From: an uncultured Actinomycetota bacterium
GTDB taxonomy: Bacteria > Actinomycetota > Actinomycetes > Mycobacteriales > CADCTP01
Direction of reading: 5' to 3'
Length of the DNA stretch: 64,000 nt
Assembly: GCA_963714145.1 (NCBI GenBank)
Contig: OY970235.1
Span: 7,962,499 to 8,026,498 of the forward strand
A model generated the notes under the pieces. It had not been told where the DNA came from, searched no databases, and was given only the letters and a program-made list of their open reading frames with translations. Positions 11,601 to 52,897 of this stretch are shown here, piece after piece. Position 1 is the first letter of the stretch; every line of letters starts with the position of its first letter. Made by a program: the position numbers and the translations under genes.

Positions 11601-11733
11601 GGCCGCCGGATCGGGCCGCAGCCAGGCCGAACTGCTGTTCCGGCTGCCGCTCGGTGCCTCGCCCACCGCGATGGCCGCCCGCGCGGCCGCCGCCTATCAG
11701 AGCCGGGCCGCGCCGCTCGTGCCGGCCCGCTGA
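8674..11733 (+). CDS. lanB: Split LanB, glutamylation-domain lanthipeptide dehydratase (Lant_dehydr_N-like) with two low-complexity insertions
   Basis: N-terminus VALLRVCGLP...RALAVRRALH and C-terminal ...LPRWITAATSVHDEPTACDLLSLQAVAVLDRLL are typical of the LanB N-domain, and no SpaB_C-like end is present. GTG 8674 or GTG 8683 (GTGA overlap with the upstream stop) could be the start. Confidence 0.8.
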   Translation: MGPVTEVALLRVCGLPGSGWTVAAAPDLFELAGALDAGAERLRADATALAARIGAELVPGPELSTVDRGRALAVRRALHTTGDAPAADLAAVADLADSVRPGPVGAGQSGWVGAGQSGWGGPGQSGPVGAGRSGRVGPGESGRSGPVGAELIGPVGPGAAEPGRAEPPGPVGVGLAGSEPVGLVAAGLAGAAGGEGPLGQALRGLAERQHALAAAVERFDAAVEAAQTGWLGAAWQVVGESATARRAVRAANPLALADIAARLAAGEPWTGKRLRQRADYLWRLATRGSTRATPRGWLGHLALLPIDPAIPAGPLPPLLPEYAIEQAGNLHVAALAGLAADSVLTVAPLHRSGAGQSRFWVVRPEEPSRLIELTVRTTPVLAAIVRALRERPLTTNQLWSEVDGPALPRREVFDGFVRHLVGLGVLAAAARPGWTVHGWRPWPADPLAEPATGPLAESSADSPAGPLAEPLANPSARSLAELPAGPLADPSVGPLAEPLTNPPAEPSADPPAGPLADRSVGPLAELAVEPPAGSLADPSAGLAVEPGGYVDVYRRAAGGLSRATCAELAELVGLALRVLAVLDSEQPRPAAGPDLPDPGPAEPRPLLELVAADVAAEHASDRPLRTEVDPGHHHDWPPVEDPESPPGRLLGWLADRLDAGPVDVDASVLDRSAQLDWPADCLIRPLWPGAAGLREVPDRPGAAGPRAVLDRIEPTGLLDARFGHGLAALFDAGAARAGWYREFLRAVEEAARGRFVELLAPALSDRAANAVRRPLHTSYWTGDPDLLRYCPTPPGPAPRFIPLADITVRQVAGAPVVVAGSEPIWPVYHATRQLPPPWDALARRLLGAGPAPPRSRWRSLRYSLPAWPGRDFVPRITVGAGALVLTCAQWRVRPGDLWPATAPLAAKVRALDRLRRRLELPRWITAATSVHDEPTACDLLSLQAVAVLDRLLRHRVEALYLAEMLPSPPQFPVSDQAAGSGRSQAELLFRLPLGASPTAMAARAAAAYQSRAAPLVPAR
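8983..9105 (+). repeat. Five in-frame 24-bp tandem units (VGAGQSGW-type)
   Basis: gtcggggccgggcaatccggctgg repeated with small changes; it encodes VGAGQSGW VGAGQSGW GGPGQSGP VGAGRSGR VGPGESGR. Confidence 0.9.
10008..10305 (+). repeat. About 300-bp in-frame low-complexity array (PLAE/PxAGPLA-type units)
   Basis: Encodes PLAEPATGPLAESSADSPAGPLAEPLANPSARSLAELPAGPLADPSVGPLAEPLTNPPAEPSADPPAGPLADRSVGPLAELAVEPPAGSLADPSAG. Confidence 0.85.
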
Positions 11734-12086: not shown

Positions 12087-13352
12087 GTGCCGAACGGTTG
12101 CCGCCGGCCCGACCCGTACCGCCGCGGCCGGCCGGAAGCGCCGACCGTGATCCGCGCCGGCGCGACCGACGGGGGTATATCGACCGGCGGCAGTACCGGG
12201 CACGGCTCCGGTGCCAACGGCGGTGGCCGGCAGTTGGGCCTGCCGGATGCCGATCTGGCCGGCGTCGTGGCGGAGGTCGCCATCGGTCCGGGGCTGCGGC
12301 AGACCGGCGACGCGGGAGTCGGCGTGCTGCTCGGGTTGGTCAGGACGGAACTGCCGGTGCGGCAGGCGTTGCTGGCCGAGTGGCTCGGTGGGCTGCGCGC
12401 CGGGGCCGCCGGCGGTGGGCTGTTCGGCGGTGGGTCGGCCGGGCACGCCGTCGGGCTGGCGTACGCGGCCGAGGCCGAGCCGAGGCTGGCCGGGTTGGCC
12501 ACCCGCCGGCGGGCGGCGTTGGCCGGCTGGGCCGGCGCGAGCCCGTGGCGCGGCGATGCGGTCGGCTGGGCCGACTATGACCTGATGACCGGGCCGGCGG
12601 GGGTGCTGCTCGCGCTGGCCAGCCTGCCGGCGCCCGCGCCGGCCGAGATCCGCCCGCTGGCCGAGCACCTCGCCGGCCTGACCGGCGACCTGGACCGGTT
12701 GCGGGTGCGGCGGCATGCCGGTGACGGTCAGGCCGCCCAACTCGGCCACCTCGACCACGGCCTGGCCCACGGCCTCGCCGGCGTCGTGGCCGCAATGACC
12801 GCTGCCGCCCGGCTGTTCGGACCCGAACCGCCCGGGTTGCGCCGGGCCGCGCACCGGCTCCGTGCGACGTCCTATGTGGACAGTACCGGCGTAGCGAGCT
12901 GGCCGCCGAGCAGCGCCGGGGCCGACCCGTCCCGTCCGGTCCACCGGCAGGCCTGGTGCTACGGCGCGCCGGGCGTTGCCTGGGCGCTCTGGGATGCCGG
13001 CCAGCTGTTGGGCGATGCCGAGCTGACCGGCCTCGCGGCCGCGGCGATGGCCAGCCTCTGCGCGGCCTGGGACGACGACCGCTACCTCTACGGCGAGCTG
13101 GGCGACCGGCTCGGCGTCTGTCACGGCGCGGCCGGTGTTCTCGCCGTCGCCGACGCGTTCGCCCGGCACGCCGGGCACCAGCCAGCGGCCGGGCTGCGTA
13201 CCCACCTGCGCGGCCGGATTGACCCGGACCGCATCGCCGAGCTCGGCCGTACCGACCTGACCATGCTCAACGGCGCGGCCGGCGTGCTGACTGTGCTGAC
13301 CACTGTGGACGGTGGCCGGCGCGACTGGCTGCCGGTGCTGGGGCTGCGATGA
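12087..13352 (+). CDS. lanC: LanC-type lanthipeptide cyclase
   Basis: GLAHGLAG, WCYGAPGVAWAL and CHGAAGVL motifs (Zn ligands Cys/Cys/His). The true start is uncertain (GTG 12087 or a later GTG). The stop overlaps the next ATG (ATGA). Confidence 0.9.
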   Translation: MPNGCRRPDPYRRGRPEAPTVIRAGATDGGISTGGSTGHGSGANGGGRQLGLPDADLAGVVAEVAIGPGLRQTGDAGVGVLLGLVRTELPVRQALLAEWLGGLRAGAAGGGLFGGGSAGHAVGLAYAAEAEPRLAGLATRRRAALAGWAGASPWRGDAVGWADYDLMTGPAGVLLALASLPAPAPAEIRPLAEHLAGLTGDLDRLRVRRHAGDGQAAQLGHLDHGLAHGLAGVVAAMTAAARLFGPEPPGLRRAAHRLRATSYVDSTGVASWPPSSAGADPSRPVHRQAWCYGAPGVAWALWDAGQLLGDAELTGLAAAAMASLCAAWDDDRYLYGELGDRLGVCHGAAGVLAVADAFARHAGHQPAAGLRTHLRGRIDPDRIAELGRTDLTMLNGAAGVLTVLTTVDGGRRDWLPVLGLR

Positions 13353-15112
13353 CCGCGGTACTGCGGATGCTGCTCGCCGTCTCCCGCCGGAAAGTGGCGG
13401 CACTCGCGGTGGTCGTGCTGGTGCAGGCGCTCGCCCCGGTCGCGGCGGTGGTCGCGGTCGGGCACCTGCTCGGTGCGGTGGTCGCGCTGCGCACCGATCC
13501 GGGCGCGCCCGGCCGGGCCTGGCTCGCGTTCGCGCTGCTGGCTGCCGCCTGGCTGGCCGATCAGCTGGCCCAGTTCGCCGGCGCGGCGCTCACCGCCCGG
13601 CTGAGCCGGCTGGTGGCCGAGCACATCACCGGCGCGGTGCTGGCGGCCAGCCTCCACCCGGTCGGCATCGGTCACCTGGAGGATCCGGCGCGGGCCGATC
13701 AGTTCAGCCTGGCCCAGGGGCTCGGCGCCGGCAGCTTCCCGCCGGCCGCCGCGGTAGCCGCGCTGACCCAGGTGGCGGTGATCCGGCTGCAGGCGCTGGC
13801 CACGGCGGTGACGCTGGCCAGCGTGCTCTGGTGGGCGCCGCTGCCGCTGATTCTCGGCTGGGTACTGCTCGGCCGGCGCGTCGCCGGGCAACTCCGCGAG
13901 CAGGTGCGGGCGGTACAGGCGGAGACCGCGGCGCTGCGCCAGGCGACCTACTTCCGCACGCTCGGCCTGGACCTCGGCGCCGCCAAGGAGGTCCGGGTCT
14001 TCGGCCTCGGCGGCTGGCTGGCCGACCGGTTCACCGCCTGCTGGCAGGCCGGCATGGGTGAACTGCTCCGCCGCCGGGACAGCCGGCTGCCGCTGGCCTG
14101 GCGGACCGCGCTGCTGGTCGGCAGCTACGCGGCGGTGCTGACCGTCCTGGTGGACGCCACGCTGGCCGGTCGGGTGTCGATCACCGGGTTGACCATCGCG
14201 ATCCCGGCCGCGATCGCGATGTCCGGCTTCGGGTGGAGCGGGGATCCACAGTGGACGCTCGCCGGCGCGGCGCCGGCCATCCAGCAGGCGCTGGCACTGT
14301 CCGAGCCGGCGCCGCCGCGCGCCGGTCGTGACCCGGACGGGCCGCGGGTCGGCATCCGGTTCGAGGACGTCAGCTTCGGCTACCCCGGCCGCCCGGACCG
14401 ACCGGCGGACCGGCTGAACCTGTGCATCCCGGCCGGCCAGTCGCTGGCCATCGTCGGCGCGAACGGAGCCGGCAAGACCACCCTCATCAAGCTGCTGGCC
14501 CGGCTGTACGAGCCGGCCGCGGGCCGGATCACGGTCGACGACGTCGATCTGCGCGAGCTGGACGCGGCCGGCTGGCGCCGCCAGCTCGCCATCGTCTTCC
14601 AGGACTTCCTCCGGCTGGAGCTGACCGCCCGCGACAACGTCGCATGTGGACGGTCCGGTACTCCGGTGGACGAGGCGGCGCTCGCCGCCGCCGCATCCGC
14701 GGCCGGTGCCGCGGACCTGATCGCGACGCTGCCGCAGGGCTGGGACACCGTGCTGTCCCGCCGGTTCGGCGACACCGAGCTGTCCGGCGGCCAGTGGCAG
14801 AAGCTGGCGCTGGCCCGGGCGCTCTACGCGGTGCGGCTCGGCGCCCGGGTGCTTGTCCTGGACGAGCCGACCGCGCAGCTGGACGCGGCGGCCGAGGCCG
14901 AGCTCTACGCGCGGTACCTGGAGCTCACCCGCGGGCTGACCACCGTGCTGGTCTCGCACCGGTTCAACACGGTCCGGCTGGCCGACCGGATCGTGGTGCT
15001 CGCCGGCGGCCGCATCGTCGAGGACGGCAGCCACGACGAGCTGATCCGAGCCGGTGACTGGTACGCCCGGATGTTCCGGCTGCAGGCCGACCGGCTCGCG
15101 GCGTCCACATGA
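13349..15112 (+). CDS. ABC exporter, fused permease/ATPase
   Basis: Six-TM-like N-terminal half. Walker A GANGAGKTT, signature LSGGQWQ, Walker B LVLDEPTA. ATGA coupling at both ends. Confidence 0.9.
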   Translation: MTAVLRMLLAVSRRKVAALAVVVLVQALAPVAAVVAVGHLLGAVVALRTDPGAPGRAWLAFALLAAAWLADQLAQFAGAALTARLSRLVAEHITGAVLAASLHPVGIGHLEDPARADQFSLAQGLGAGSFPPAAAVAALTQVAVIRLQALATAVTLASVLWWAPLPLILGWVLLGRRVAGQLREQVRAVQAETAALRQATYFRTLGLDLGAAKEVRVFGLGGWLADRFTACWQAGMGELLRRRDSRLPLAWRTALLVGSYAAVLTVLVDATLAGRVSITGLTIAIPAAIAMSGFGWSGDPQWTLAGAAPAIQQALALSEPAPPRAGRDPDGPRVGIRFEDVSFGYPGRPDRPADRLNLCIPAGQSLAIVGANGAGKTTLIKLLARLYEPAAGRITVDDVDLRELDAAGWRRQLAIVFQDFLRLELTARDNVACGRSGTPVDEAALAAAASAAGAADLIATLPQGWDTVLSRRFGDTELSGGQWQKLALARALYAVRLGARVLVLDEPTAQLDAAAEAELYARYLELTRGLTTVLVSHRFNTVRLADRIVVLAGGRIVEDGSHDELIRAGDWYARMFRLQADRLAAST

Positions 15113-16923
15113 GACTCGAATGGCTGCGGTTGTGGTCCGCGCTGCTGCGGCTGGCGCTGCGGGCCGATCGGCGGCGCGCGGTCACCGTGCTGCTGCTGGC
15201 CCCGCTGGCCGGCGCGGCGATCGGCGCTCCGGCGCTGGCTCTGAAATGGACAGTCGACGCGGTGGTCCGCGGCGATCGGGGGCAGGCGTTCGCGGCGGCG
15301 GCGGCGTTGGCCGGCGCCGTCGTCGCCGTCTCGCTGCTGGGCACCGCGGCCACCAGTGTCCGGCTGGCCCTGCAGCAGCAGGCCGGGCAGGCGCTGGACC
15401 GGCACCTGATCGAACTGTGCACCGGCATCCCCGGCCTGGACCGGCACGAGGATCCGGCCTTCCAGGACCGGCTGGAGATCCTGCACCGCAACCGGGACGT
15501 GCTCGCGTCCGCGATCAGCAGCCTGCTGGAGAACCTCCGCACCGGCGCCCGGCTGGTGTCGATGGTCGTCCTGCTCGCCGGTATCGACCTGCGACTGCTG
15601 CTGCTCCCGCTGTTCGCGCTGCCCACGGTGCTGGCGGCCGGCGCCGGGCAGCGGCTGCAGCGCCGCTGCGACGAGGAGATCGCCGCGCCGAGCCGGCTGC
15701 GTGGCTGGCTGTTCACCCTCGGCAGCACCGCCGGCCCGGCCAAGGAACTGCGCGTCTACAACCTGGCGGACGAGCTGACCCGCCGGCACGATCGCCTGCA
15801 GCAGGCGGTGAACGACCGCGACCAGTCCACCGCGATACGCGTCGCCGCGCTGGAGTTCGCCGGCTGGACGGTCTTCTGCGCCGGCATTCTCGGCGCGGTG
15901 GCGCTGGTACTGCACCGGGCCGTCCACGGCACGGCCACGGCCGGCGACGTCGTGCTGCTGGTCACGCTGGCTACCCAGGTGGACAGCACGGTCGCCACCG
16001 CCGCCCGCGCTGTCCAGTGGCTGCGCCGCGCCAGTTGGGCCGGCAGCCACTACCGCTGGTTGATCGGCGAGGCCGGCCCGTCCGGGTCGGTCGCCGGGCC
16101 GGCCCCGGAACCGGGCGAACTGGTCTTCGACCGGGTCACGTTCGGCTACCCGGGCCGGGAGCAGCCGGTGCTGCGGGAGGTGTCGCTGCGCATCCCGGCC
16201 GGCGCCACCGTAGCGCTGGTCGGTGCGAACGGCGCCGGCAAGTCCACAGTGGTCAAACTGCTCTGCCGGCTGTACGAGCCGACCAGCGGCCACATCCGCC
16301 TCGGCGGCCGGGACATCCGCGACTTTCCGCTGGACGCCTGGCGAGCCCGGATCACCGCCGCCTTCCAGGACTTCTACCGGTACGAGCTGCCGCTACGGGA
16401 CGGCGTCGGCATCGGCGACCTGTCCACTATGGACGATGCGGGCGCGGTCACCCGGGCGATCGCCCGGGCCGGCGCGACCGCGCTCGTGGACAGCCTGCCA
16501 GCCGGCGCGGCCACCCAGCTCGGCCGCAGCTACGCCGACGGCCAGGACCTCTCCGCCGGCCAGTGGCAACAGCTCGCCGTCGCCCGCGCGATGATGCGCG
16601 AACACCCGCTGCTCACCATCCTGGACGAACCCACCGCCAGCCTCGACCCGGCCGCCGAGCAGGCCCTGTTCGAGCGCTACGCCGCCGCGGCCGCCGACCC
16701 CACCAGCATCACCATCCTGGTCTCGCACCGCTTCTCCACCGTCCGCACCGCCGACCTGATCGTCGTCCTCGACTCCGGCCAGGTCCGCCAGTTCGGCACC
16801 CACCAACAACTCCTCGCCGAACCAGGCCCCTACGCCACCCTGGTAGCCCTGCACACCCGCGGCTTCGCCACTCCTGAAGCCACCGAGCCAGCCGCTGAGC
16901 CAACACCGCCGGTCCACCAGTAG
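15109..16923 (+). CDS. ABC exporter, fused permease/ATPase (probable heterodimer partner)
   Basis: Walker A GANGAGKST, signature LSAGQWQ, Walker B TILDEPTA. Confidence 0.9.
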   Translation: MRLEWLRLWSALLRLALRADRRRAVTVLLLAPLAGAAIGAPALALKWTVDAVVRGDRGQAFAAAAALAGAVVAVSLLGTAATSVRLALQQQAGQALDRHLIELCTGIPGLDRHEDPAFQDRLEILHRNRDVLASAISSLLENLRTGARLVSMVVLLAGIDLRLLLLPLFALPTVLAAGAGQRLQRRCDEEIAAPSRLRGWLFTLGSTAGPAKELRVYNLADELTRRHDRLQQAVNDRDQSTAIRVAALEFAGWTVFCAGILGAVALVLHRAVHGTATAGDVVLLVTLATQVDSTVATAARAVQWLRRASWAGSHYRWLIGEAGPSGSVAGPAPEPGELVFDRVTFGYPGREQPVLREVSLRIPAGATVALVGANGAGKSTVVKLLCRLYEPTSGHIRLGGRDIRDFPLDAWRARITAAFQDFYRYELPLRDGVGIGDLSTMDDAGAVTRAIARAGATALVDSLPAGAATQLGRSYADGQDLSAGQWQQLAVARAMMREHPLLTILDEPTASLDPAAEQALFERYAAAAADPTSITILVSHRFSTVRTADLIVVLDSGQVRQFGTHQQLLAEPGPYATLVALHTRGFATPEATEPAAEPTPPVHQ

Positions 16924-20631: not shown

Positions 20632-20816
20632 AGTCCACTCCCTCACCGCCGGCAGCCCGGTCATCGGCAGGTAGACGCCGCGACCCGGGGCGAGGTTGAG
20701 TGCCCCGATCGAGGTTTCCGGGCCGCACCCGCCCGCCGTGCCCTTTCGGCTGGCCGGCGGGGACGGCCGGGGTAATCCGCTGGCTGCCGCCGAGCGCCGG
20801 CTGGCACCCTGCTGGC

Positions 20817-21878
20817 ATGGGGGAAACCGGGGATGCGCTGGGCAAGTTGGACGCGCGGTTGCGGGAGTGGACGGCGGAGCGTGACTTCTCCGGCGTCGCG
20901 CTGATCACCCGCGCCGGCACGGTCGAGTTCGAGGGCTGCTACGGCCTGGCCAACCGCGCGGACGGGGTGCCGAACCGGATCGCGACCCGGTTCGGGCTGG
21001 CGTCGCTGACCAAGATGTTCACCGCGCTGACCGTGGTCGACCTGGTCGGTCGCGGCAGGGTCGGTTTCGACACCCCGGTGGTGGACGTGCTGCCGGCGGC
21101 GCGCCGCCCGGCCACGCTGCTGCCGGAGGTGACGGTGCACCACCTGCTCGCCCACACCGCTGGCATCGCCGACTACTTCGAGGAAGAGGACGAGCACGCC
21201 AGCGGTGACTTCGCCGAGCTCTGGACCGAGCTGCCGGCGTACCGGATGCTGCGCCCGGCCGACTTCCTGCCGCTGTTCGGTGACCTGCCGCCCTACCGCG
21301 GGCCTGGCCAGCGGTTCCAGTACTCCAACGCCGGCTACATCGTGCTCGGCCTGCTGATCGAGGAGTTGAGCGGCCGGCCCTACCAGGACGCCGTCACCCG
21401 CGCCGTGTTCGAGCCGGCTGGGATGGCCGCCAGCGGCTTCTTCGCCCTGGACGAGGTGCGCCCGGACATCGCCGTCGGCTACCTGCCGCCGCGCGAGCCG
21501 GGCGGGCTCTGGCGGTCCAACATCTACGCGATCCCGGCCCGCGGCGGCCCGGACGGCGGCGCCCTGTCCAACGCCATCGACCTCGACCGGTTCCTGCGGG
21601 CCTTCGCCGCCGGCACGATGGCCGGCCCGGACGGCCGGGACGCCATGCTCACCCCGCGCGCCGAGATCCGGGACGGCCTGGCCATGGGCTACGGCACCTT
21701 CCTGTACGGCACCGGCGGCACACATCGCTACGGCCACGGCGGCGGCGACCCCGGCTACGAGGTGCTGATCCACCACTTCCCGGCGCAGCAGGCCAACACC
21801 ATCGTCCTGTGCAACATCAACGGCCTGGCCAGCGACGTCCGCGACGAACTGGTCACCGCCACGCTGGCCCTGAGCTAG
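20817..21878 (+). CDS. Serine hydrolase, beta-lactamase/PBP (class C-like) family
   Basis: S-x-x-K (ASLTK) and YSNAGY motifs. ATG at 20817. Confidence 0.9.
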   Translation: MGETGDALGKLDARLREWTAERDFSGVALITRAGTVEFEGCYGLANRADGVPNRIATRFGLASLTKMFTALTVVDLVGRGRVGFDTPVVDVLPAARRPATLLPEVTVHHLLAHTAGIADYFEEEDEHASGDFAELWTELPAYRMLRPADFLPLFGDLPPYRGPGQRFQYSNAGYIVLGLLIEELSGRPYQDAVTRAVFEPAGMAASGFFALDEVRPDIAVGYLPPREPGGLWRSNIYAIPARGGPDGGALSNAIDLDRFLRAFAAGTMAGPDGRDAMLTPRAEIRDGLAMGYGTFLYGTGGTHRYGHGGGDPGYEVLIHHFPAQQANTIVLCNINGLASDVRDELVTATLALS

Positions 21879-21910: not shown

Positions 21911-24514
21911 TCAGCCGGCGCCGAAGCAGACGAAGGCGGCGGCCGGGGCGGTCTGGGTGGCGGCGGCGAGCGCGCGGGCCGGCGGCAGGCCGGTGGCGAG
22001 GTGCCGGTGGTAGGAGGTCATCACCTGGATCGCGACGTCGTCCGGGACGCGGACCACGCTGGCGACGACGTTGCGGGTTCCGGCCAGCAGCAGCGCGGTG
22101 GTGAAGCCGAGGATCTCCTCGCCCGGGTGGACCGCGGCGCGGCCGACGTCGCAGGCGGACAGCACGACCTGCCGCGGCGGCCTGGCCAGCCCGTAGACGT
22201 CGTAGGCCATCAGCGGTCCGTCGGCGAGGTCGAGCCGGGAGAACAGGACGTTGTCGCGCTGGTGGTGGCCGTGGGTGGCGAGGTGGGCCAGCGGTGCGGT
22301 GCGGAGCGCCGCCAGCACATCGGCCACGGTGGCGTCGGCGGGCCGGAACGTCCGGCTGCCCGGGTGGATCGCGGCGATCGCCTCGATCTCCGCCTCGGCG
22401 TGCCGCAGGTCCGGCCCGGCCACCAGCACCGGCGGGCCGTCCGGCGCGCCGTCCCCATCGGCACCGTCCCCATCGGCACCGCCCCGGTCAGCGCGGGCGG
22501 CGGCGTACCAGGCGGACGCGGACGGGGCGACGGTCACCGGCCGGCCGCGCAGGTCGGGCAGTAGCCCCCATGGCACCGCGGACAGTGCCGCGCCGGGTAC
22601 CAGCACCAGCTCGGCGGTGCCGATCAGCGGGCGCAGCGGCGCGACCAGTTCGGCGGTGAGGACGTCCACGTGGTGCCGGATCGAGGCCCGGACGACGGCG
22701 GCCAGCGGCGCGGGGTGGTCGCGGCCGGCGAGGACGTCGAGGTCGGCGAGCAGCCGCCGCTGCGCCTCCCGCGCGACGGCCGCGTCGCCGAGCGGTACCG
22801 GGTGCGCCCGGCCGTCCCGGACAACCAGCCCGCGCAGTTGACCCTGGCGCTCGAACATCGTCACCAGGACCCGCCGGTCGCGGGCCAGTTCCGCGGTCAG
22901 CTCGGTGAGCGTGGGCAGCGCGCTGCTGTGTCCGGTGCCGGGCACCCGGCGGTCCCGGTCGAGGATGGCCCGTTCCAGTGCCGCGCACCGGGCCAGGGCC
23001 CGCTGGTCGCGCCGGCCAGCCAGCTCCGCCTCCCGGGCCAGCCGGCGGAGGCCGCGCAGCTCGGCGATGTCGTCCGCGGTCTGCGGGTCCGCCGACGGGC
23101 GCACCGGTGTGGTCCGGAACGCCTGCGCCCGGGACCGCTCGGACCAGGTGAAGACCAGCCGGGTGGTGCCGGCCGCGTCCAGCCCGGTCCGGGCCAGCTC
23201 GACGCCGAGCGCCGCGACGCCGACCTGCAGTTCCAGGCTGCCCAGCCGGCTGCGCCGACCGTGCAGCAGCGCGAGGCCGGCCCGGAGCTGGCTGAGCGCA
23301 CCCGAGGTGTCGCCACGGGCCAGCGCGAGCTCGGCCCGGGTCATCCGCCAGAGCAGCCGCAGATCCAGCGGGGCACCGGCGCCCAACCGGCTCACCTCGG
23401 CGGCTACCTCGCCGGCCGGCCCGATCCGGCCCAGCCGGATCAGCCCACGGACGGCCAGCAGCGTGGCCGCGGCGGCGTCGTGCCCCAGCCCGTGCTGCCG
23501 CAGCGACGCGGCCAGCGCGAGTGCGCGGGTCGGCAGCCGGCGGATGTTGCCCAGCGCGAGTTCGACCCGCAACCGGAGCAGGCCGGCGAGCTGCGCCCAG
23601 GACTCGTTGCCCCGGGCCCGGAATCTGGTCTCGGCCCGCCGCGACCAGGCCAGCGCGCCGACCAGATCGCCGGTCGTGAGCGCGGCCTGGGCCCGGGCCA
23701 GCGCGGCCTCCGCGTAGTCCTGGGTGAGTCGCTGCGCGCGGAACTGGTCGAGCGCCTCGTCCAGGTCCCTGGCCGCGTCGTGGCCGAGGCCGGCGGCGAG
23801 CAGCGCCTTGGCCCGGTTGACCGCCAGGATCGGCAGGAAGCCCGGGCTCAGCTGCGCGTAGCCGCGCCCGGCTGCCGCGAACGCGGCCAGCGCCGCCGGG
23901 ATGTCACCGGTGAGCAGGTCGCACAGCCCGCCGTTGTGCCCGGCCTTGACCGCGATCAGGGGCAGGTCGTGCCGCCGGGCCAGCCGGGCGCACCGGCGCA
24001 GGTCGTCGCGGGCCGGCGTGACCCGGCCGCTGTCGATGTGCACGAGCGCCCGGTTCAGCAGCGTGGGCACCAGCACCGCCATCTCGCCGGACCGCTCCAG
24101 CAGCGGGATCGCGGCATCCAGCAGCGGCAGCGCGTTCTCGACCCGGCCCAGCCGCAGCAGCATCAGCCCGGCCTGCTGCAGCAGCACCCCGTGCTCGCCG
24201 GCCGGAAGCAGCGTGGCGGCCTCGTCCAGGAGCGTGAAGCCGAGGTCGGTGCGGCCCTGCTCGGCCTCGGCCAGGGCCAGGCTGATCAGGATCCGGCCAT
24301 GTAACCGGGAGCTCTCGGCCCCGACCACGGCGGCGTTCTCGAGCACCCGCAGCGCCCGCCGCAGCTGCCGGGCGCCGAGCACGGGACGTCCGCCAGAGGT
24401 CGCGCCGACCCCCTGGCGGTGCAGTTGCCGGGCGAGGTCCAGCGCGTGCTCCGCCCGGACAGGTGGCCGCCGCTCGGCGGCGCGCCGTACACCGGCCTCG
24501 GGCGCAGCGGTCAC
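21911..24514 (-). CDS. TPR-repeat CHAT-domain protease
   Basis: The start is GTG 24514, overlapping the upstream stop (GTGA). A long TPR-like helical repeat region is followed by a C-terminal CHAT core with HLATHGHH (His) and VVLSACDVG (Cys). The 1034-aa track ORF includes an unsupported N-terminal extension. Confidence 0.85.
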   Translation of the reverse strand: MTAAPEAGVRRAAERRPPVRAEHALDLARQLHRQGVGATSGGRPVLGARQLRRALRVLENAAVVGAESSRLHGRILISLALAEAEQGRTDLGFTLLDEAATLLPAGEHGVLLQQAGLMLLRLGRVENALPLLDAAIPLLERSGEMAVLVPTLLNRALVHIDSGRVTPARDDLRRCARLARRHDLPLIAVKAGHNGGLCDLLTGDIPAALAAFAAAGRGYAQLSPGFLPILAVNRAKALLAAGLGHDAARDLDEALDQFRAQRLTQDYAEAALARAQAALTTGDLVGALAWSRRAETRFRARGNESWAQLAGLLRLRVELALGNIRRLPTRALALAASLRQHGLGHDAAAATLLAVRGLIRLGRIGPAGEVAAEVSRLGAGAPLDLRLLWRMTRAELALARGDTSGALSQLRAGLALLHGRRSRLGSLELQVGVAALGVELARTGLDAAGTTRLVFTWSERSRAQAFRTTPVRPSADPQTADDIAELRGLRRLAREAELAGRRDQRALARCAALERAILDRDRRVPGTGHSSALPTLTELTAELARDRRVLVTMFERQGQLRGLVVRDGRAHPVPLGDAAVAREAQRRLLADLDVLAGRDHPAPLAAVVRASIRHHVDVLTAELVAPLRPLIGTAELVLVPGAALSAVPWGLLPDLRGRPVTVAPSASAWYAAARADRGGADGDGADGDGAPDGPPVLVAGPDLRHAEAEIEAIAAIHPGSRTFRPADATVADVLAALRTAPLAHLATHGHHQRDNVLFSRLDLADGPLMAYDVYGLARPPRQVVLSACDVGRAAVHPGEEILGFTTALLLAGTRNVVASVVRVPDDVAIQVMTSYHRHLATGLPPARALAAATQTAPAAAFVCFGAG

Positions 24515-24993
24515 AACACCACGGCGGGGGTGACGATCGGGCCGCCCGCACCGACCGGGCGGACGACGAACTGGACGATGCCGGCCGGGATGTCGGTGAA
24601 CACGAACCGACCCTGCTCGTCGGCGACCGTCCGGGTCGGTCCGCCGGTGGTCCGGACCTGCACGCTGTGGGTGCCGGGCGGGGTGAGCCAGCCGTCGATG
24701 GTGAAAGTGGAATCCGGCTGCCGGGCGACGCTGACCAGAACTGTCAGGTGGTCGTTGTGGAACGTGATGGTGCGGCTGCCGTCGTCCGCCCCGCGGGTGG
24801 CGACGAGGTCCTCGGCCCGGTCCGGCCGGAAGCTGTCCGCGTCCATGTTCTCCAGGCTCAGCGCGAACCCGATGCAGGTGAGCAGGTCGGCCGGCACCGG
24901 GTCGACGGCCGAATAGAGGGTCCGGACCCCGTCCAGGATGGCCAGGTCGGTCTCGTCGATGGGGTCGGACGGTTGCGGGTCGGCCGGCGTCAC
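24511..24993 (-). CDS. 160-aa protein coupled between the ECF sigma and CHAT genes; C-terminal carboxypeptidase-regulatory-like beta-sandwich; candidate anti-sigma/substrate
   Basis: GTG start in a GTGA overlap with the sigma stop, and its own stop overlaps the CHAT start. The ...VADEQGRFVFTDIPAGIVQFVVRP motif is present. No TM segment and no HxxxCxxC. Confidence 0.7.
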   Translation of the reverse strand: MTPADPQPSDPIDETDLAILDGVRTLYSAVDPVPADLLTCIGFALSLENMDADSFRPDRAEDLVATRGADDGSRTITFHNDHLTVLVSVARQPDSTFTIDGWLTPPGTHSVQVRTTGGPTRTVADEQGRFVFTDIPAGIVQFVVRPVGAGGPIVTPAVVL

Positions 24994-25544
24994 GGCCTGC
25001 TCCAGCCCGGGTCACCGGCCAGCAGCCGGCGCAGCTCGGCGAGGCACCGCCCCCGGGTCGGGCCGATGCTGCCGCGGGGCATCCCCAGCGCCTCGCTGAT
25101 CGCGTTGTAGTCGGGCCGGTGCGCGAAGGCGATCACCCGGATCAGTTCCTGGCAGCGGGCGGAGAGCTGACGGACCGCCGCCCAGAGCACCCGCCCCCGC
25201 TCCTCGTCCAGCACGATGTCCTCGGGCAGCGGCTCCGTGCTCGGCTGCTCGGCCAGCAGTGACAGCACGTCGGGCACCTCGGCCCGCCGCCGCATCCGGG
25301 TTCGCATATGCCAGGCCTCCCTTTTCGTGACGGTGATCAGCCAGCCGATGACCGCCTCCGGAGTCTGGATGGTGTCCAGACTCCGGAGGAACGCCATCCA
25401 GGTCAGCTGGACGGCATCAGCCGCGCTGTCCTGATCCAGGCCCTGGCTGCGCGCAACCTGCCAGAGCAGAGGCGTGGCGTCAGCCACCAGCTTGTCGAGG
25501 GCGTCCCGCTCCCCGGACCGGATGGCGTCGAGCACGTTGCCCAC
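24990..25544 (-). CDS. ECF-type sigma-70 family RNA polymerase sigma factor
   Basis: Region 2 (LTWMAFLRSL...WLITVTKREAWHMR) and region 4 HTH (YNAISEALGMPRGSIGPTRGRCLAELR). GGAGAA RBS. Confidence 0.9.
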   Translation of the reverse strand: MGNVLDAIRSGERDALDKLVADATPLLWQVARSQGLDQDSAADAVQLTWMAFLRSLDTIQTPEAVIGWLITVTKREAWHMRTRMRRRAEVPDVLSLLAEQPSTEPLPEDIVLDEERGRVLWAAVRQLSARCQELIRVIAFAHRPDYNAISEALGMPRGSIGPTRGRCLAELRRLLAGDPGWSRP

Positions 25545-25602
25545 GAGCGTTCTCCGTCGTGCTCGGCAAACCAGCTGTCTCGCCCGCCATGAATCGTCCC
25601 GG

Positions 25603-27213
25603 TCATGACGAGTTGGCCCTGACGTTAGCCATCGCCGCCAGCGCCCGGCTAGTCATTTGCGCCGGTTGGAGCAAATCGAGTGAGGGCTGCTCGACCAATC
25701 CGAGCAGGGCGGTGGCGATCGCCGCGGCGGCGACCGGGGTGGCGAACGACGTGCCGCTCCAGACGGCGAAGCCGGTGCTGAAATCGTCGTCGTCGAGTGC
25801 TTGCCGCCGGTCCAGCGGACGCGGGGCGCCGGTCCGCTCGAGGCCGTTGCCGGCATTTCTGCTGCCTTGCGCGACCGGGTAGGTGCTGGCGATGACGCTG
25901 CCGCTCGCCCAGCAGGTGACCCAGGCCGCCTCGTTGGAGTACAGGGCGATGGAACCGTTCGGGTTGAGTGCTCCGACGGCCAGCAGCGGCAGTGCCGGCG
26001 GGCTCGGATCCAGCGGCAGTTCGATCGACCCGGCGGCCGGATAGAACCGCTCGCTGGTGGCCTCGTTCCCGGCCGCGGCGACGACCAGCACACCCAGCCT
26101 GAGCAGCCTGCGCAGCCGGTCCAGCAGCGGGGTCGCCGCCCGCGGCGACTCGGCGAAGAAGCCGAACGGCAGGCAGAGGATGTCGACGATGGCCGCGGCC
26201 GCGCCGGCCTGCTGCGCGGCGGTGATCTGGTCGATCAGCCGGTCCAGCACGCACAGGACGTCGGCCTCGTAGAGGATTCCATCGCTGTGCATGACCCGGA
26301 CGACCAGCGTGTCAGCGTCCGGCGCGATCTGTGCCACGATGCCCGCGGCGAACGTGCCGTGCCCGGAGTGGCTGTCCAGTTCGCCGATCAGCGGCTGACT
26401 CGACGCCGGTTGGTCCCACTCGTCCAGCAGCACCCGACTGTTCGGGCTCACGGCCTTCTCCTGCTGGCCCAGCAGCCGGACCAGCTGCTGCAGGCCGCCG
26501 TCGACCCGGACCCGGGAGCCCGCGGGCAGCGGGCCGGACGCCGGTATGCCGAGCCACGGGTTCGGCCCGATACCACTGTCCAGAATCGCGATCACCGGTC
26601 GCCGGCGCAGGTCGGGTCGCCGGGCCGGCGGCGCCAGCAGGAGCTCGATCGGCCGGCGGAACGCGAGATCCGGCGGGCCGTACGAGCTGGCCACCCCGCC
26701 GCCCACCGGGCTGCCGTGCCAGGCGCCGTTGTCCGGGTCGACCGGGACTCCCAGCAGCAGGTGTTCCAGCGAGATCTGGGCCACCAGGTCGGGCGGGAGC
26801 TGGCCGGCGCGGGCGGCCGCGCGCAGGATCTGCAGGGCCCGCCAGGCGTCGATCACGGTGGGCAGCGCACCCCGGCTCGCGGCCCGGAGGATCAGCCGGC
26901 CGACCGACGCCGCGGTGAATATCGCCGGCACCACCAGCAGGCCCGCCGGGTTCAGCGCCGCGTTGATCGACGCGATCACCCCGGGGTTGCTGGCGACGGC
27001 GGTGGGGATGAGCAGGACGTGGTGCCGGTAGACGGTCGGACCGAGCGGCGGGTCGTCCGGCAGCGCCTCGGCCCGGGTCGGTTCGAGCACCCTGGCGCTG
27101 TGCCGGCGGAGGTCGTCCGGCGGGATCGGTAGGACCGCCGGCGTCGAGCTGCCGCCGCTCGGCGTGGTTCCCGGCACCTGCAGGTAGACGTGCACGTCTG
27201 CTCCGTTTCTCAA
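25603..27213 (-). CDS. S8 (subtilisin-like) serine peptidase with ~190-aa unknown N-terminal region; no signal peptide
   Basis: Catalytic triad contexts ILDSGIG (Asp), HSGHGTFAAG (His) and SGTSFATPVAAAA (Ser). An alternative start is GTG 27195, which has a GGAG RBS. Confidence 0.85.
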   Translation of the reverse strand: MRNGADVHVYLQVPGTTPSGGSSTPAVLPIPPDDLRRHSARVLEPTRAEALPDDPPLGPTVYRHHVLLIPTAVASNPGVIASINAALNPAGLLVVPAIFTAASVGRLILRAASRGALPTVIDAWRALQILRAAARAGQLPPDLVAQISLEHLLLGVPVDPDNGAWHGSPVGGGVASSYGPPDLAFRRPIELLLAPPARRPDLRRRPVIAILDSGIGPNPWLGIPASGPLPAGSRVRVDGGLQQLVRLLGQQEKAVSPNSRVLLDEWDQPASSQPLIGELDSHSGHGTFAAGIVAQIAPDADTLVVRVMHSDGILYEADVLCVLDRLIDQITAAQQAGAAAAIVDILCLPFGFFAESPRAATPLLDRLRRLLRLGVLVVAAAGNEATSERFYPAAGSIELPLDPSPPALPLLAVGALNPNGSIALYSNEAAWVTCWASGSVIASTYPVAQGSRNAGNGLERTGAPRPLDRRQALDDDDFSTGFAVWSGTSFATPVAAAAIATALLGLVEQPSLDLLQPAQMTSRALAAMANVRANSS

Positions 27214-27333
27214 GGGCGGTCGCGGTGGCCGACCGGCAGAAGATAGGTGGGCCCGACCCCGGCCCTGGATACCGGTGCGGGCGGCTGCGCGCCGGCGCCC
27301 CCGTCGGCGCCGGCGCGGGTTGGTCCCGGCCGG

Positions 27334-29085
27334 TCAGGCCCGGCGTGGGGTGATGACCCGGGTGTGGATGGCCGCGCCGGTGGTCGCGCTCCTGGCCACG
27401 CTGGTCGCGGTGTGGATCGCGGTCACCTCCAGCCTGCCGTCGGCGACGATGTCCAGGACGCCGAGCACCAGCGGTCCGCCGGTGGGGCCGGCGACCTCGC
27501 GCAGGCTGCAGCAGTCGTCCATGGTCGCCTCACCGGGCAGCAGGACGATCTCGGCGAAGCGCCGGGCCGGCTGCCGGTCCGGTTCGCGGCCGATCACCCG
27601 GCCCTGCCGCACGAGCGTGGCGAACCGCTTCTCGATCCGGATCGGGCAGCTGGTCGGGTTGTAGATCGTGACGGCGGTGGCGTACCGGCCGTCCACGACG
27701 GTGCGGCAGTCGTCGGCGGGGTCGGCCGGGTCCGGACCCTCGACGCCGCAGACCATCTCCACCGAGTGGTGCCAGCGGCAGGCCGGCACGGTCACGGTGA
27801 CCGGCTTGCTGGCCACCACGACGCCGTCGGCCACGACGTCGAGGGCGCCGGTGAACACCTGGTCCTTGTCGCCGCAGTCGCGGTCGCCGGTCCACACCAC
27901 CTCGAACGGCAGCACGTGCTGGACGTTGCCGGGCAGCGGGCCGTAGCCGCCGGCCGGGGTGATCCCGGTGACGAACCCGGTGATCTGGCCGGTGGGGGCG
28001 AGCGTGACCGAACCGGTCTCGCCGACCGCCGCGGCGATCAGCTTCGCCAGGGTGTCCACGATCGCGCCGGCGTCCACACCGGTGGTGTGCGAGCCGCCGG
28101 TGGCCGCCGCGATCTCGGTCGCCTGGCCCGGGGTGCCGCCGGCGGCGCACGGGTAGTCGATGCCGGCCGGGTTGTCGTCCAGGCCGGCCGGCAACCCGGT
28201 GGTGGTGCTGACCGCGATCACGGTGTGGCCGGCCAGGTCGGTGGTGACGCTGGCCTGGGTGAGATCCGCCGGCAGGCCGGTGAGCGAGGCGCAGACCGGG
28301 TCGTGGCCGGGGGCGTCGCCGAACCAGACGATGATCCGCTTGCTGCCCGGGCGCCACCCGGTGGCCGGGTCGGTCGCGATCCGGTGCAGCGCGTAGAGCT
28401 GGCCCTCCGGGGCGTCGCCGCCCTCGCCGTTGGTCGTCCAGGCGGCCACCGCGGCGAGCGCCGCGGGGACGGTCGACGCGCTGGGCGAGAGCTGGTGCGC
28501 GAAGGCGTACGAGCTGCTGCCGGGCACCGGGAAGTCGCGGTAGTTGCCCACCCCCCAGGCCACGTCCACGCCGGGGAAGCTGCCGATGATCGTGGTGCTG
28601 CCGGCCTTCACCGCGTCGATCACCGGCGCCATGCTGCCGGTCGTGTCGGCCAGCAGGTAGACGTCCGCCTTCGGGTTCGCGCCGGACTTGGGGATCGTGA
28701 CGACGACCGTCTCGTGCTCGGTCGCGCACTTGGGCAGCGTCCAGTTGTTGGAGATCGGGTTGATCCGCACCGGGTCGCGGCGGACGACGACCGGGCCGGT
28801 CGGCGGGTGCACGTCCGGGATGAAGAGCGGCCGGCCGGCGCGTGCCTCCAGTTCGTCCCGGCGGTGCACCGCGGCGGCGGCGTCGACGGCCAGCGCGGCG
28901 GTCCGGTTCCGCTTGCCGCGGATCGCCGCGGTCACCAGCCGGACGGTCTCGCCGGTCGGCATCCGGTCGGACACGTCGGCGACGATCTCGATGTCGGTGC
29001 TGCGCAGTACCTCGGCGAGCGCCGCCCGGACCGCCCCGGTCGGGTCCGGTGCCGCGGCGCCCGGCGTGTTGTCGGTTGAGCTCAT
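27334..29085 (-). CDS. von Willebrand factor A (vWA) domain protein with Ig-like and Cys-rich C-terminal domains
   Basis: MIDAS-like DTTGSM, ...WFGDAPGHDP. C-terminal ACRWHHSVEMVCG...DDCRTVVDGRYATAVTIYNPTSCPIRIEK...DDCCSLREV. No signal peptide. Confidence 0.8.
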   Translation of the reverse strand: MSSTDNTPGAAAPDPTGAVRAALAEVLRSTDIEIVADVSDRMPTGETVRLVTAAIRGKRNRTAALAVDAAAAVHRRDELEARAGRPLFIPDVHPPTGPVVVRRDPVRINPISNNWTLPKCATEHETVVVTIPKSGANPKADVYLLADTTGSMAPVIDAVKAGSTTIIGSFPGVDVAWGVGNYRDFPVPGSSSYAFAHQLSPSASTVPAALAAVAAWTTNGEGGDAPEGQLYALHRIATDPATGWRPGSKRIIVWFGDAPGHDPVCASLTGLPADLTQASVTTDLAGHTVIAVSTTTGLPAGLDDNPAGIDYPCAAGGTPGQATEIAAATGGSHTTGVDAGAIVDTLAKLIAAAVGETGSVTLAPTGQITGFVTGITPAGGYGPLPGNVQHVLPFEVVWTGDRDCGDKDQVFTGALDVVADGVVVASKPVTVTVPACRWHHSVEMVCGVEGPDPADPADDCRTVVDGRYATAVTIYNPTSCPIRIEKRFATLVRQGRVIGREPDRQPARRFAEIVLLPGEATMDDCCSLREVAGPTGGPLVLGVLDIVADGRLEVTAIHTATSVARSATTGAAIHTRVITPRRA

Positions 29086-30346: not shown

Positions 30347-31405
30347 TCAGGCGGCCGGCGCGAGCAGCGCGAAGAGGCGGGAGCCGACGAGGCCGGGTGG
30401 CCCCTCGTACCTGGCCGCGGCGACGATCGCCTGACCGGCCGCCCAGGGCTGGTTGTCGAGCAGGACCTCGGCGGTCATCGGCGTCCGGTCCTGGTGCATC
30501 GTGAACACGCGCAGGCTGTGCACCGCGCGGGACAGCGGCACGCCACCCAGCGCGGCCAGCAGCGCGTCCAGCAGCGGGCCGATCGGCGCCGGCGGGGCGG
30601 CCGAGTAGAGGCCGAGCAGCGGGCCGAGGCAGACGTCGAACGCGCCCCCCGGGTGGCTGAGCCGGTCCCATTCCACCTGGTCGGCGCCGGCCGACCGGTC
30701 CAGCAGGACGGCCAGGATCGGGTGCAGGCTGCCCCGGCCGAACTTCCGGACGGTCTGCCCGAGCGCGTCCTGCCAGGTCTCACCGACGCCGGCGAAGCTC
30801 TCCACGACCCGATCCTTGGCCAGCGCCGGGTGCCGCACGACGAAGTCGACCTGCACCATGAGCTGGCGCCCCGGCGGGTGCGGGAAGACCTGCGCGTCGA
30901 ACTCGAGCGCGCCGACCCGGGAGCCGTCGACGGCGAAGCCGTGCTCCCGCAGCAGGCCGGCGAACGCCTCCCGGACCGACGGCACACCGCCGTCGCCGGT
31001 GCCCATCGGCGGCAGCGGCTGCGGCAAGGTGAGCGGCAGCAGTTCCAGGTCGGCCGCCGCCGAGCCCGCGTTCAGCGCCTCGTTGACCGCGGTCACCTCG
31101 GAGCTGCGCAGGCCGATCCGGCGCACCTCGTCCCGGTTGGCGGTCGCGGCCCGGGCCGTCGCCGCCTGGAAGACCGGATCGCCGGCCAGCGGGCGGGTCA
31201 CCTCGCCGTCGACGAAGTCGGCCGAGGCGGTGACCGCGCCCAGCAGCACCCGGCCGAAGGCCACCGGCAGGAAGACCAGCAGCCGCTCGGCCAGCCAGGG
31301 CTCGACCCCCTGCCGGGTCAGCGTGGTGTACACGTCCGCATCGTCGGGCGGGCTCTCGCCCTGGAGGAACGCCGCGATCCCGGCGACAACGGCTGCATCG
31401 AACAC
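30347..31405 (-). CDS. Hypothetical protein (352 aa)
   Basis: Coherent long frame with high third-position GC. No motif recognised. Confidence 0.55.
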   Translation of the reverse strand: MFDAAVVAGIAAFLQGESPPDDADVYTTLTRQGVEPWLAERLLVFLPVAFGRVLLGAVTASADFVDGEVTRPLAGDPVFQAATARAATANRDEVRRIGLRSSEVTAVNEALNAGSAAADLELLPLTLPQPLPPMGTGDGGVPSVREAFAGLLREHGFAVDGSRVGALEFDAQVFPHPPGRQLMVQVDFVVRHPALAKDRVVESFAGVGETWQDALGQTVRKFGRGSLHPILAVLLDRSAGADQVEWDRLSHPGGAFDVCLGPLLGLYSAAPPAPIGPLLDALLAALGGVPLSRAVHSLRVFTMHQDRTPMTAEVLLDNQPWAAGQAIVAAARYEGPPGLVGSRLFALLAPAA

Positions 31406-42487: not shown

Positions 42488-42677
42488 GGGCCACCCCCTG
42501 AGAATCGGACAACAGTAGGGCATCCAGCACGGACCAGGTGTGTTCGGGAGCTCGGGCCGGCTCCGCTGCACGACCAGGGGGTGGCCGGTGCCCGCGCGGC
42601 TGGTCAGCTGGCGGCGGCGGCGGCGGACCGGCGGCACCGGCGCGGCCGGCGGCCGGGAGCGGGCTAGGGTCGGCGGC

Positions 42678-48914: not shown

Positions 48915-49006
48915 CCGACCCCCACGGCAGCCGATCGGACCTCCCGCGTCAAGAAGACACCAGGCCGCGCAACCCCGCAGCCCGACGGATCGACCCGGCC
49001 GCGCCC

Positions 49007-52775: not shown

Positions 52776-52897
52776 GTGTCATCCCGGCGACCGGCCTGCG
52801 TGGCAGGAGGAATGGCCTGCCGCGGTGATTCAGCGCGTCGCCGAACGACGTTCACGGCCCGATTCGGGTTGCGGGTGCCATGAGGGAGGGGGGCCGC

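Follow-up and report, generated by a model that had tools for sequence, protein, structure and literature searches.

We analysed a window of 64,000 nucleotides (the whole stretch of DNA considered here, positions 7,962,499 to 8,026,498 of contig OY970235.1, assembly GCA_963714145.1) from an uncultured bacterium of the Actinomycetota, and in it a cassette of four genes that encodes two predicted proteases, a sigma factor of the extracytoplasmic function (ECF) type and a small protein of 160 residues. The four open reading frames (ORFs) lie head to tail on the minus strand: first an S8 peptidase, then the ECF sigma factor, the small protein and a protease that combines tetratricopeptide repeats (TPR) with a CHAT domain. 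A first-pass annotation of the sequence had described the last three genes as chained by 4-nt GTGA overlaps. When we read the DNA directly at both junctions, we observed that the two overlaps are true ones: at the sigma/small-protein junction (24990-24993) CCG-TGA lies over GTG-ACG, and at the small-protein/CHAT junction (24511-24514) TTG-TGA lies over GTG-ACC. A GGAG Shine-Dalgarno sequence precedes the start of the sigma gene as well as that of the small-protein gene. The G+C content at third codon positions is 0.86-0.94 in the four ORFs, which is the actinobacterial codon bias; the overall G+C content is 72-78% around the cassette and 68-78% across the window, and near-identical proteins are annotated in a metagenome-assembled genome of the Mycobacteriales.

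Conservation of the cassette was examined by scanning species-representative genomes with the small protein (the scan alignment comprised 5 sequences), and 20 loci were returned, from Streptosporangiaceae, Catenulispora, Rugosimonospora, Trebonia, Nocardiopsis and unclassified Actinomycetota. By tblastn, the order S8-sigma-small protein-CHAT was found on one strand in all 21 distinct loci reached via the small protein, as far as their contigs extend. In the lead alignment of each locus, identity to the proteins of the window is 32-44% for the S8 peptidase, 36-57% for the sigma factor, 36-46% for the small protein and 33-53% for the CHAT protein. Related loci that carry an organism label belong to the Actinomycetota in 21 of 22 cases, the remaining one (L021) being labelled Candidatus Eremiobacteraeota. 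Of four genomes from cultured strains, three (Micromonospora lupini, Kibdelosporangium banguiense and Actinopolymorpha alba) carry the cassette, which was also called in a Joint Genome Institute metagenome contig and in Catenulispora sp. GAS73, likewise a cultured strain. Plantactinospora solaniradicis has a variant form: the sigma gene is 1.6 kb away, a peptidase gene is inserted, no S8 gene is adjacent, and the small-protein and CHAT genes still overlap.

Four loci on contigs of long-read metagenome-assembled genomes (L018, L020, L021 and L022) have cassette genes split across frames, most likely by sequencing frameshifts and not because they are pseudogenes; they were left out of the fine comparisons. 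In the 18 loci with clean frames, the 4-nt overlap between the sigma and small-protein genes is found 12 times, the window included, the spacing between the small-protein and CHAT genes goes from -4 to +35 nt, and the S8 and sigma genes are mostly separated by 2-90 nt or overlap. The sigma/small-protein overlap would fit a pair made in stoichiometric amounts. Clustering of all flanking ORFs gave no other conserved flanking gene. Since more than 20 loci with differing flanks contain these four genes, identically ordered and on one strand, a chance assembly is excluded, and the conservation in relatives on which the first-pass proposal depended is thereby established. That proposal had, on the other hand, treated the S8 gene as a mere neighbour, which was not borne out: because the order is conserved across the loci, S8 is the integral first gene of a four-gene operon and not a bystander. 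The four genes thus form a conserved, tightly packed and translationally coupled unit in many Actinomycetota (Table 1).

Table 1. Position of the cassette genes and associated features in the window
Feature	Coordinates	Strand	Basis
S8 peptidase, first gene of the operon	25603..27195	-	Pfam PF00082; start revised
ECF sigma factor, 184 aa	24990..25544	-	TIGR02937, Sigma70_r2
160-aa soluble two-domain protein	24511..24993	-	AlphaFold2; weak PF13620
Codons 63-70 of the small protein, candidate cleavage site (inferred)	24784..24807	-	pLDDT < 50; Arg67
TPR-CHAT protease, 867 aa	21911..24514	-	Pfam CHAT, AlphaFold2, Foldseek
Intergenic region 5' of S8, presumed promoter region of the operon	27196..27333	-	sequence; upstream alignment

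The domain identities proposed at first pass for the CHAT protein, the sigma factor and the S8 peptidase agree with our profile searches against Pfam and NCBIfam. In the CHAT protein, residues 619-855 match the Pfam family CHAT PF12770, of the clan CD caspase-like peptidases (E 5.7e-35, 121.6 bits for a cut-off of 24), and the TPR matches are all under the Pfam gathering cut-offs. Its histidine and cysteine, recognized earlier in the motifs HLATHGHH (His748, 22271-22273) and LSACDVG (Cys788, 22151-22153), are invariant in 44 homologues, as is the Gly after His748; the catalytic dyad is intact and the protein is a predicted active protease. No N-terminal anti-sigma domain was found in it by Pfam. 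The public gene call starts 44 codons later and gives a protein of 823 aa; since this start removes the near-invariant Gly42/Pro44 and a confident helix at 21-40, the overlapping start at 24514 is preferable.

An AlphaFold2 model of the CHAT protein, built with the 44 homologues, has a predicted local distance difference test score (pLDDT) of 89.8 and a predicted template modelling score of 0.88. In this model about two dozen helices form a TPR superhelix at residues ~21-520, and an alpha/beta caspase-like CHAT domain occupies residues ~540-867. By Foldseek, the model is closest in the PDB to separase of human and yeast (E down to 1.8e-14), and Csx29 (8eey_B, E 8e-13, 12% identity) and DdvA (8rw5, E 2.4e-11; 8rot_A, E 8.6e-11) are also retrieved, these structural matches being only 10-15% identical. 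Separase and DdvA thus fit the model as well as Csx29 does. The caspase-type fold assigned at first pass to the C-terminal domain is thus recovered by both Pfam and the predicted structure. In sequence comparisons, the profile of the CHAT family reaches Csx29 at only E ~0.3, and a single-sequence search with the CHAT protein gave no match. The protein has, according to the model, a fold of the separase/Csx29/DdvA class, and orthology with Csx29 is unsupported by sequence.

The S8 peptidase matches Pfam Peptidase_S8 PF00082 (E 5.9e-19, 68.9 bits for a gathering cut-off of 21.8). It consists of a conserved N-terminal region of ~200 aa that has no family match, followed by the catalytic domain, and the closest relatives with a solved structure are an intracellular subtilisin and CylA, a protease of lantibiotic leaders. 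The first-pass annotation had started the gene at TTG 27213 (25603-27213). We consider GTG 27195 as the likelier start, because a GGAG sequence lies 5 nt upstream of it, the orthologues begin with MKWFF or MKLYF, and an independent gene call gives a protein of 530 aa. Numbered from this start, Asp206, His279, the oxyanion residue Asn377 and Ser483 are invariant in 16 orthologues, so that the intact D/H/S triad reported earlier holds. The lack of a signal peptide, also reported, agrees with Kyte-Doolittle profiles, and the S8 peptidase is predicted to be an active cytoplasmic protease. More generally, by the Kyte-Doolittle heuristic only, no signal peptide, N-terminal hydrophobic segment or membrane helix was found in the four proteins or in their orthologues; from this hydropathy heuristic, the whole four-gene system is predicted to be cytoplasmic.

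The sigma factor was identified by TIGR02937 (sigma70-ECF, 65.4 bits for a cut-off of 42.9) and by Pfam Sigma70_r2, and its residues 15-179 align to Mycobacterium tuberculosis SigE in the PDB. With sigma2 and sigma4 only and neither extension nor extra domain, the protein is a minimal ECF sigma factor and therefore needs a regulator acting in trans. Its homologues number 890 at E <= 1e-10, many of them more than 50% identical and found in rare actinomycetes, and all those bearing an organism name are Actinomycetota. The conserved positions fall in the sigma2 and sigma4 regions, and there is no conserved extension or conserved disordered cut site. The protein encoded downstream of the sigma factor has no match to any anti-sigma family of Pfam or NCBIfam.

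The neighbours of the sigma factor carry PF13620 (weakly), PF00082 and PF12770, and this is the hallmark composition of group ECF54, whose context was described as carboxypeptidase-like, subtilase and CHAT in a review of 2022 (PMC8999054, which cites Huang et al. 2015, J Bacteriol 197:2517, and Casas-Pastor et al. 2021). Proteolytic control has already been proposed there for ECF54. Casas-Pastor et al. described ECF54 as actinobacterial, and noted a 4Fe-4S protein in its vicinity (PMC7826278). Like ECF54, our locus has a minimal actinobacterial ECF sigma factor, no recognizable anti-sigma gene and the same neighbour domains. Unlike in the published description, no radical SAM gene is found among the annotated immediate neighbours in the window, and none is conserved across the loci; radical SAM (4Fe-4S) genes are located a short way downstream in Plantactinospora (L023, 13757-15583) and in Micromonospora lupini (L024, 13319-14503). 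Based on this gene-context signature, we putatively assigned the sigma factor to ECF54, and the locus is very probably a functional ECF54-type sigma/protease cassette.

It follows that the gene pattern was already published as the hallmark of ECF54, together with the idea of control by proteolysis (PMC8999054, PMC7826278), which had been missed at first pass; a Craspase-like switch would be a reasonable analogy and not a new class. The first-pass remark that no characterized actinobacterial example was known agrees with our full-text searches of the papers available to us, in which no experimental study of an ECF54-type cassette was found. With respect to the parts of the published descriptions that we consulted, what our analysis adds is the integral position of the S8 peptidase, the predicted separase/Csx29/DdvA-type fold of the CHAT protein, the predicted all-cytoplasmic nature of the system and the architecture of the small protein with its invariant linker arginine. 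Indeed, the helices, linker, beta-sandwich and invariant Arg of the small protein are not resolved in those parts, nor is it called there an anti-sigma candidate.

The AlphaFold2 model of this small protein has a pLDDT of 77, with values above 90 in the beta-domain. Two helices (14-30 and 37-45) are followed by a linker predicted to be disordered and by a beta-sandwich at ~73-160, and residues 63-70, the sole stretch with a pLDDT below 50, contain Arg67. An alignment of 113 sequences has four invariant columns only, Asp31, Pro34, Arg67 and Gly128. The motif D31-P-x-P34 makes the turn between the two helices, with D31 and P34 invariant. Arg67 (24793-24795) is present in 113/113 sequences, within the motif [AV]-[GA]-[AV]-R-[GSA]. 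The small protein has a single Cys, which is not conserved, and therefore no CHCC zinc site of the DdvA type.

Concerning its family, a word-indexed search gave 9 matches, and an exhaustive HMMER profile search retrieved 2313 cluster representatives when the limit was E <= 1e-3 and 197 when it was E <= 1e-30. PF13620 (CarboxypepD_reg) is weakly matched by 51 of the 113 family members, and in the same way the profile of the small protein gave, among PDB sequences, three marginal matches of CarboxypepD_reg type, on the D-x-x-G-R-F motif as in PF13620. We regard the small protein as a candidate non-canonical anti-sigma factor or protease substrate, and the linker around Arg67 as a candidate cleavage site.

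The first-pass annotation had likened the locus to Craspase (Cas7-11, Csx29, Csx30, Csx31 and the sigma factor CASP-sigma/RpoE), a type III-E system of clustered regularly interspaced short palindromic repeats (CRISPR), in which Csx29 cuts Csx30, the inhibitor of CASP-sigma, and so frees the sigma factor (PMC10028731). As in Craspase, an ECF-type sigma factor is encoded in the locus and Csx29 is a top structural match of the CHAT model. Unlike Craspase, the cassette has neither Cas7-11 nor a crRNA or CRISPR array, in agreement with what had been noticed at first pass: no CRISPR-like repeat-spacer array was found within the 64-kb window, where the direct-repeat families with at least 3 copies are in-frame coding repeats and the remainder are isolated two-copy pairs, and no RAMP protein was found among the ORFs of at least ~1000 aa (the CHAT protein, a lanthionine-dehydratase-like protein, an amidase fusion and a toxin). 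The activator must therefore be something other than in Craspase. Csx30 has roughly 560 aa, and the small protein of the cassette, with 160 aa, has no detectable similarity to it. In addition, no Csx31 gene was identified in the cassette, the S8 peptidase is integral here and missing from Craspase loci, the host is an actinobacterium, and the sequence similarity of the CHAT protein to Csx29 is marginal. What the cassette has in common with Craspase is therefore its logic and the fold class of its CHAT protein, orthology with Csx29 being unsupported by sequence.

Other known systems share part of this logic. In Myxococcus xanthus, DdvA is a transmembrane anti-sigma factor fused to a periplasmic TPR-CHAT protease and is proposed to clip its own linker (PMC11506125). 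Like the cassette, the DdvA-DdvS pair is an ECF sigma system with a TPR-CHAT protein of the separase/craspase type and a His-Cys dyad. However, DdvA is one polypeptide, in which a zinc-bound anti-sigma domain in the cytoplasm is joined by a membrane helix to a dimeric TPR-CHAT part in the periplasm, whereas the components of the cassette are all predicted to be cytoplasmic, without a membrane helix, the candidate sigma-binding part is a separate protein and an S8 peptidase is added. In the CalpL-CalpT-CalpS system of type III-B CRISPR, a signal-activated cytoplasmic protease reportedly cleaves a soluble anti-sigma factor, so that an ECF-like sigma factor is released, the three-part logic that we propose here; CalpL is said to be a Lon-SAVED fusion activated by cyclic tetra-adenylate, and not a CHAT protein, and no cyclic-nucleotide sensor domain was detected in the cassette proteins with Pfam and NCBIfam. 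Separase, the best structural match, is a monomeric intracellular protease that is restrained by its inhibitor and pseudosubstrate securin and cuts after Arg, but it is eukaryotic, much larger and 10-13% identical, its substrate is cohesin and it has no link to a sigma factor. Finally, neighbourhoods with a caspase, an ECF sigma factor and TPR (DUF1822) have been described in predicted bacterial conflict systems (Kaur, Iyer, Burroughs and Aravind 2021, PMC8195603); those carry EACC2/TRADD-N adaptors and variable effectors, none of which was detected in the cassette with Pfam and PADLOC. PADLOC gave no match for any of the four cassette proteins or for the 583-aa protein encoded upstream.

The region 5' of the S8 gene was compared between loci. 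Most of them share a GTATCT sequence, of which the window has the version GTATCC (27267-27272). An element GTTAY-N6-GTTAY-N8-11-GTATY is found once per locus, on the coding strand and ~100-120 nt before S8, in 12 of 24 loci (L003, L004, L006-L008, L011, L014-L016, L018, L020 and L021); the full element is absent from the window, where only GTATCC is kept. As judged from the sequences, it is a putative cassette-specific regulatory element. We considered whether it could be the ECF54 promoter and rejected this, since the spacing of GTTAY to GTATCT, about 9-10 or 19-21 nt, is off the usual ECF -35/-10 geometry and the element is absent from the window. With one helical turn between them, the two GTTAY copies point to a regulator that binds repeats no less than to a promoter read by sigma.

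Taking these elements together, we propose a working model for the cassette. The small protein would be a soluble non-canonical anti-sigma factor whose N-terminal helices keep sigma in an inactive state. The TPR superhelix would sense a cue in the cytoplasm and thereby activate the CHAT protease, which would then cut the linker of the small protein, most plausibly after Arg67, since separase, structurally the closest characterized CHAT protease, cuts after Arg. The S8 peptidase would degrade the remaining fragment or form the second step of a protease cascade, and the sigma factor, once free, would guide RNA polymerase to the genes of its regulon, among them probably those of its own operon. 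By analogy with the systems described above, this whole chain, from sequestration of sigma to its release by CHAT with the assistance of S8, is in our opinion possible, with a probability somewhat below even. In its favour, two of the four invariant columns of the small protein, D31 and P34, fall in the putative sigma-binding helical part.

Several observations weigh against this model. The N-terminal ~65-80 residues of ten family members gave no relevant Pfam match, anti-sigma families included, at E <= 10. The profile built on 113 homologues retrieved neither Csx30 (E <= 10) nor DdvA among PDB sequences, and Foldseek with the small protein gave generic Ig-like matches only. According to Casas-Pastor et al., ECF54 has no putative anti-sigma factor (PMC7826278). 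The invariant Arg67 could instead be an interface residue. Separases cut after the Arg of (S/D/E)xExxR, but the cut sites of Craspase follow Met or Leu (PMC11506125), and separase is therefore the sole precedent for Arg at the P1 position. Moreover, the model gives no necessary role to the S8 peptidase, whose gene does not adjoin that of sigma in Plantactinospora. An extended version of the model, which we hold to be rather unlikely, would make the small protein the first of a new class of soluble anti-sigma factors, in which a short helical module binds sigma and a cleavable linker joins it to a CarboxypepD_reg-like beta-sandwich. Such a reading would turn the ECF54 cassette into a widespread, guide-RNA-independent and fully cytoplasmic counterpart of Craspase and DdvA, with a two-protease cascade controlling transcription in soil Actinomycetota, in which CHAT cuts after the invariant Arg and the subtilase completes the release of sigma.

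A different possibility, and the reading given to ECF54 in the literature, dispenses with an anti-sigma factor altogether. In that case the S8 peptidase, the CHAT protease or both would act directly on sigma, either degrading it constitutively until stopped by a signal or trimming it to an active form, and the small protein would be an adaptor or regulatory subunit of a protease, in line with the name of its carboxypeptidase-regulatory-like domain. Control of this type was proposed for ECF54 (PMC8999054), for which Casas-Pastor et al. list no anti-sigma factor; the sole family signal of the small protein is CarboxypepD_reg, with no anti-sigma signature, and in Plantactinospora the small-protein and CHAT genes stay coupled where sigma has moved away. 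However, sigma/anti-sigma pairs are classically laid out with the kind of 4-nt overlap that links the sigma and small-protein genes in 12 of 18 loci. The sigma factor also has neither a conserved extension nor a conserved disordered cut site, and the most striking candidate cut site, the invariant linker Arg, belongs to the small protein. We consider direct proteolysis of sigma to be improbable.

It can also be asked whether the proteases are the output of the sigma factor and not its regulators. Sigma, controlled from elsewhere, would activate its own operon, the proteases would remodel or destroy the proteome (in stress, in development or in a death of the abortive-infection type), and the small protein would be an inhibitor or a chaperone. 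Indeed, Casas-Pastor et al. warned that for such groups the neighbours may be targets and not regulators (PMC7826278), and some predicted conflict systems combine a caspase-like protease with an ECF sigma factor (PMC8195603). The conserved cis element, once per locus 5' of S8, would fit an autoregulated expression of the whole set, and in Actinopolymorpha alba the cassette lies directly upstream of a contractile-injection-system cluster. Yet this adjacency is found in one locus only, the four proteins have no PADLOC match, and the flanks are ordinary metabolic genes that are not conserved. Such an arrangement would also deprive a minimal ECF sigma factor, with no other regulator nearby, of any visible control and leave its strict coupling to the small protein unexplained. 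This explanation has, in our estimation, a low probability. As for a degenerate or displaced type III-E Craspase that lost Cas7-11 and its array, which would account for the same three categories (TPR-CHAT, small protein and ECF sigma) and for the presence of Csx29 among the top structural matches, it is effectively refuted by the window having no CRISPR array and no RAMP among its ORFs of at least ~1000 aa, by the CHAT profile reaching Csx29 at only E ~0.3 and by a small protein unrelated to Csx30; a cassette with an S8 peptidase, unlike Craspase loci, that is kept across many actinobacterial families is therefore an independent lineage and not a remnant.

The surroundings of the cassette were also inspected. 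A 583-aa gene (27334-29085, minus strand), located 120-138 nt upstream of S8 depending on the start retained, has a weak vWA-like match as its sole match (E 2e-4). This gene and a beta-lactamase-family gene (20700-21878) were considered as parts of the cassette and rejected, since they flank it only in the window. Further away, a 2810-aa ORF (52880-61312, plus strand) carries eCIS_core (PF13699, E 2e-27) as its N-terminal domain, together with an annexin repeat, long tandem repeats that are in frame and have periods of 39-117 nt, and a C-terminal Ntox4 toxin domain. From its domains it looks like a giant polymorphic toxin or a cargo of a contractile injection system; no structural genes of an injection system were found in the window. 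In the Actinopolymorpha alba locus (L026, 9746-16580), the cassette is followed on the same strand by sheath, gp19-like tube, CIS_tube, VgrG-like and gp25-like genes. A general link of the cassette to contractile injection systems was discarded, since none of the other loci, nor the window, has such genes; this adjacency may be a coincidence or a lineage-specific regulon.

The window also encodes, on the plus strand, a 1019-aa protein (8674-11733) that has a weak N-terminal lantibiotic-dehydratase match and tandem coding repeats rich in Pro, Gly and Ala. It is followed by two genes of the ATP-binding cassette (ABC) transporter ATPase/permease type (13349-15112 and 15109-16923, plus strand), and the three genes may constitute a cluster for a ribosomally synthesized and post-translationally modified peptide. 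Three other genes were noted on the minus strand: an amidase-amidohydrolase fusion of 989 aa (47679-50648), a stand-alone condensation-domain protein of nonribosomal peptide synthetase type with 526 aa (41105-42685) and a DUF6348 protein (30347-31405).

ECF54 is one of the few ECF groups without a known regulator, and its members have apparently never been studied experimentally. The present analysis turns the question of whether these sigma factors are regulated by proteolysis into a specific hypothesis, with four soluble proteins, two predicted nucleophiles (Cys788 and Ser483) and a candidate cut site (Arg67). Should the model prove wrong, the cassette would simply be a further annotated locus of the ECF54 type. 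If it is true, the control of sigma factors by TPR-CHAT proteases of the separase type would be a general bacterial theme, found in three settings: the CRISPR-guided Craspase, the periplasmic DdvA and the free-standing cytoplasmic cassette of Actinomycetota. The last of these would then provide a programmable switch from protease to transcription that needs no CRISPR component.

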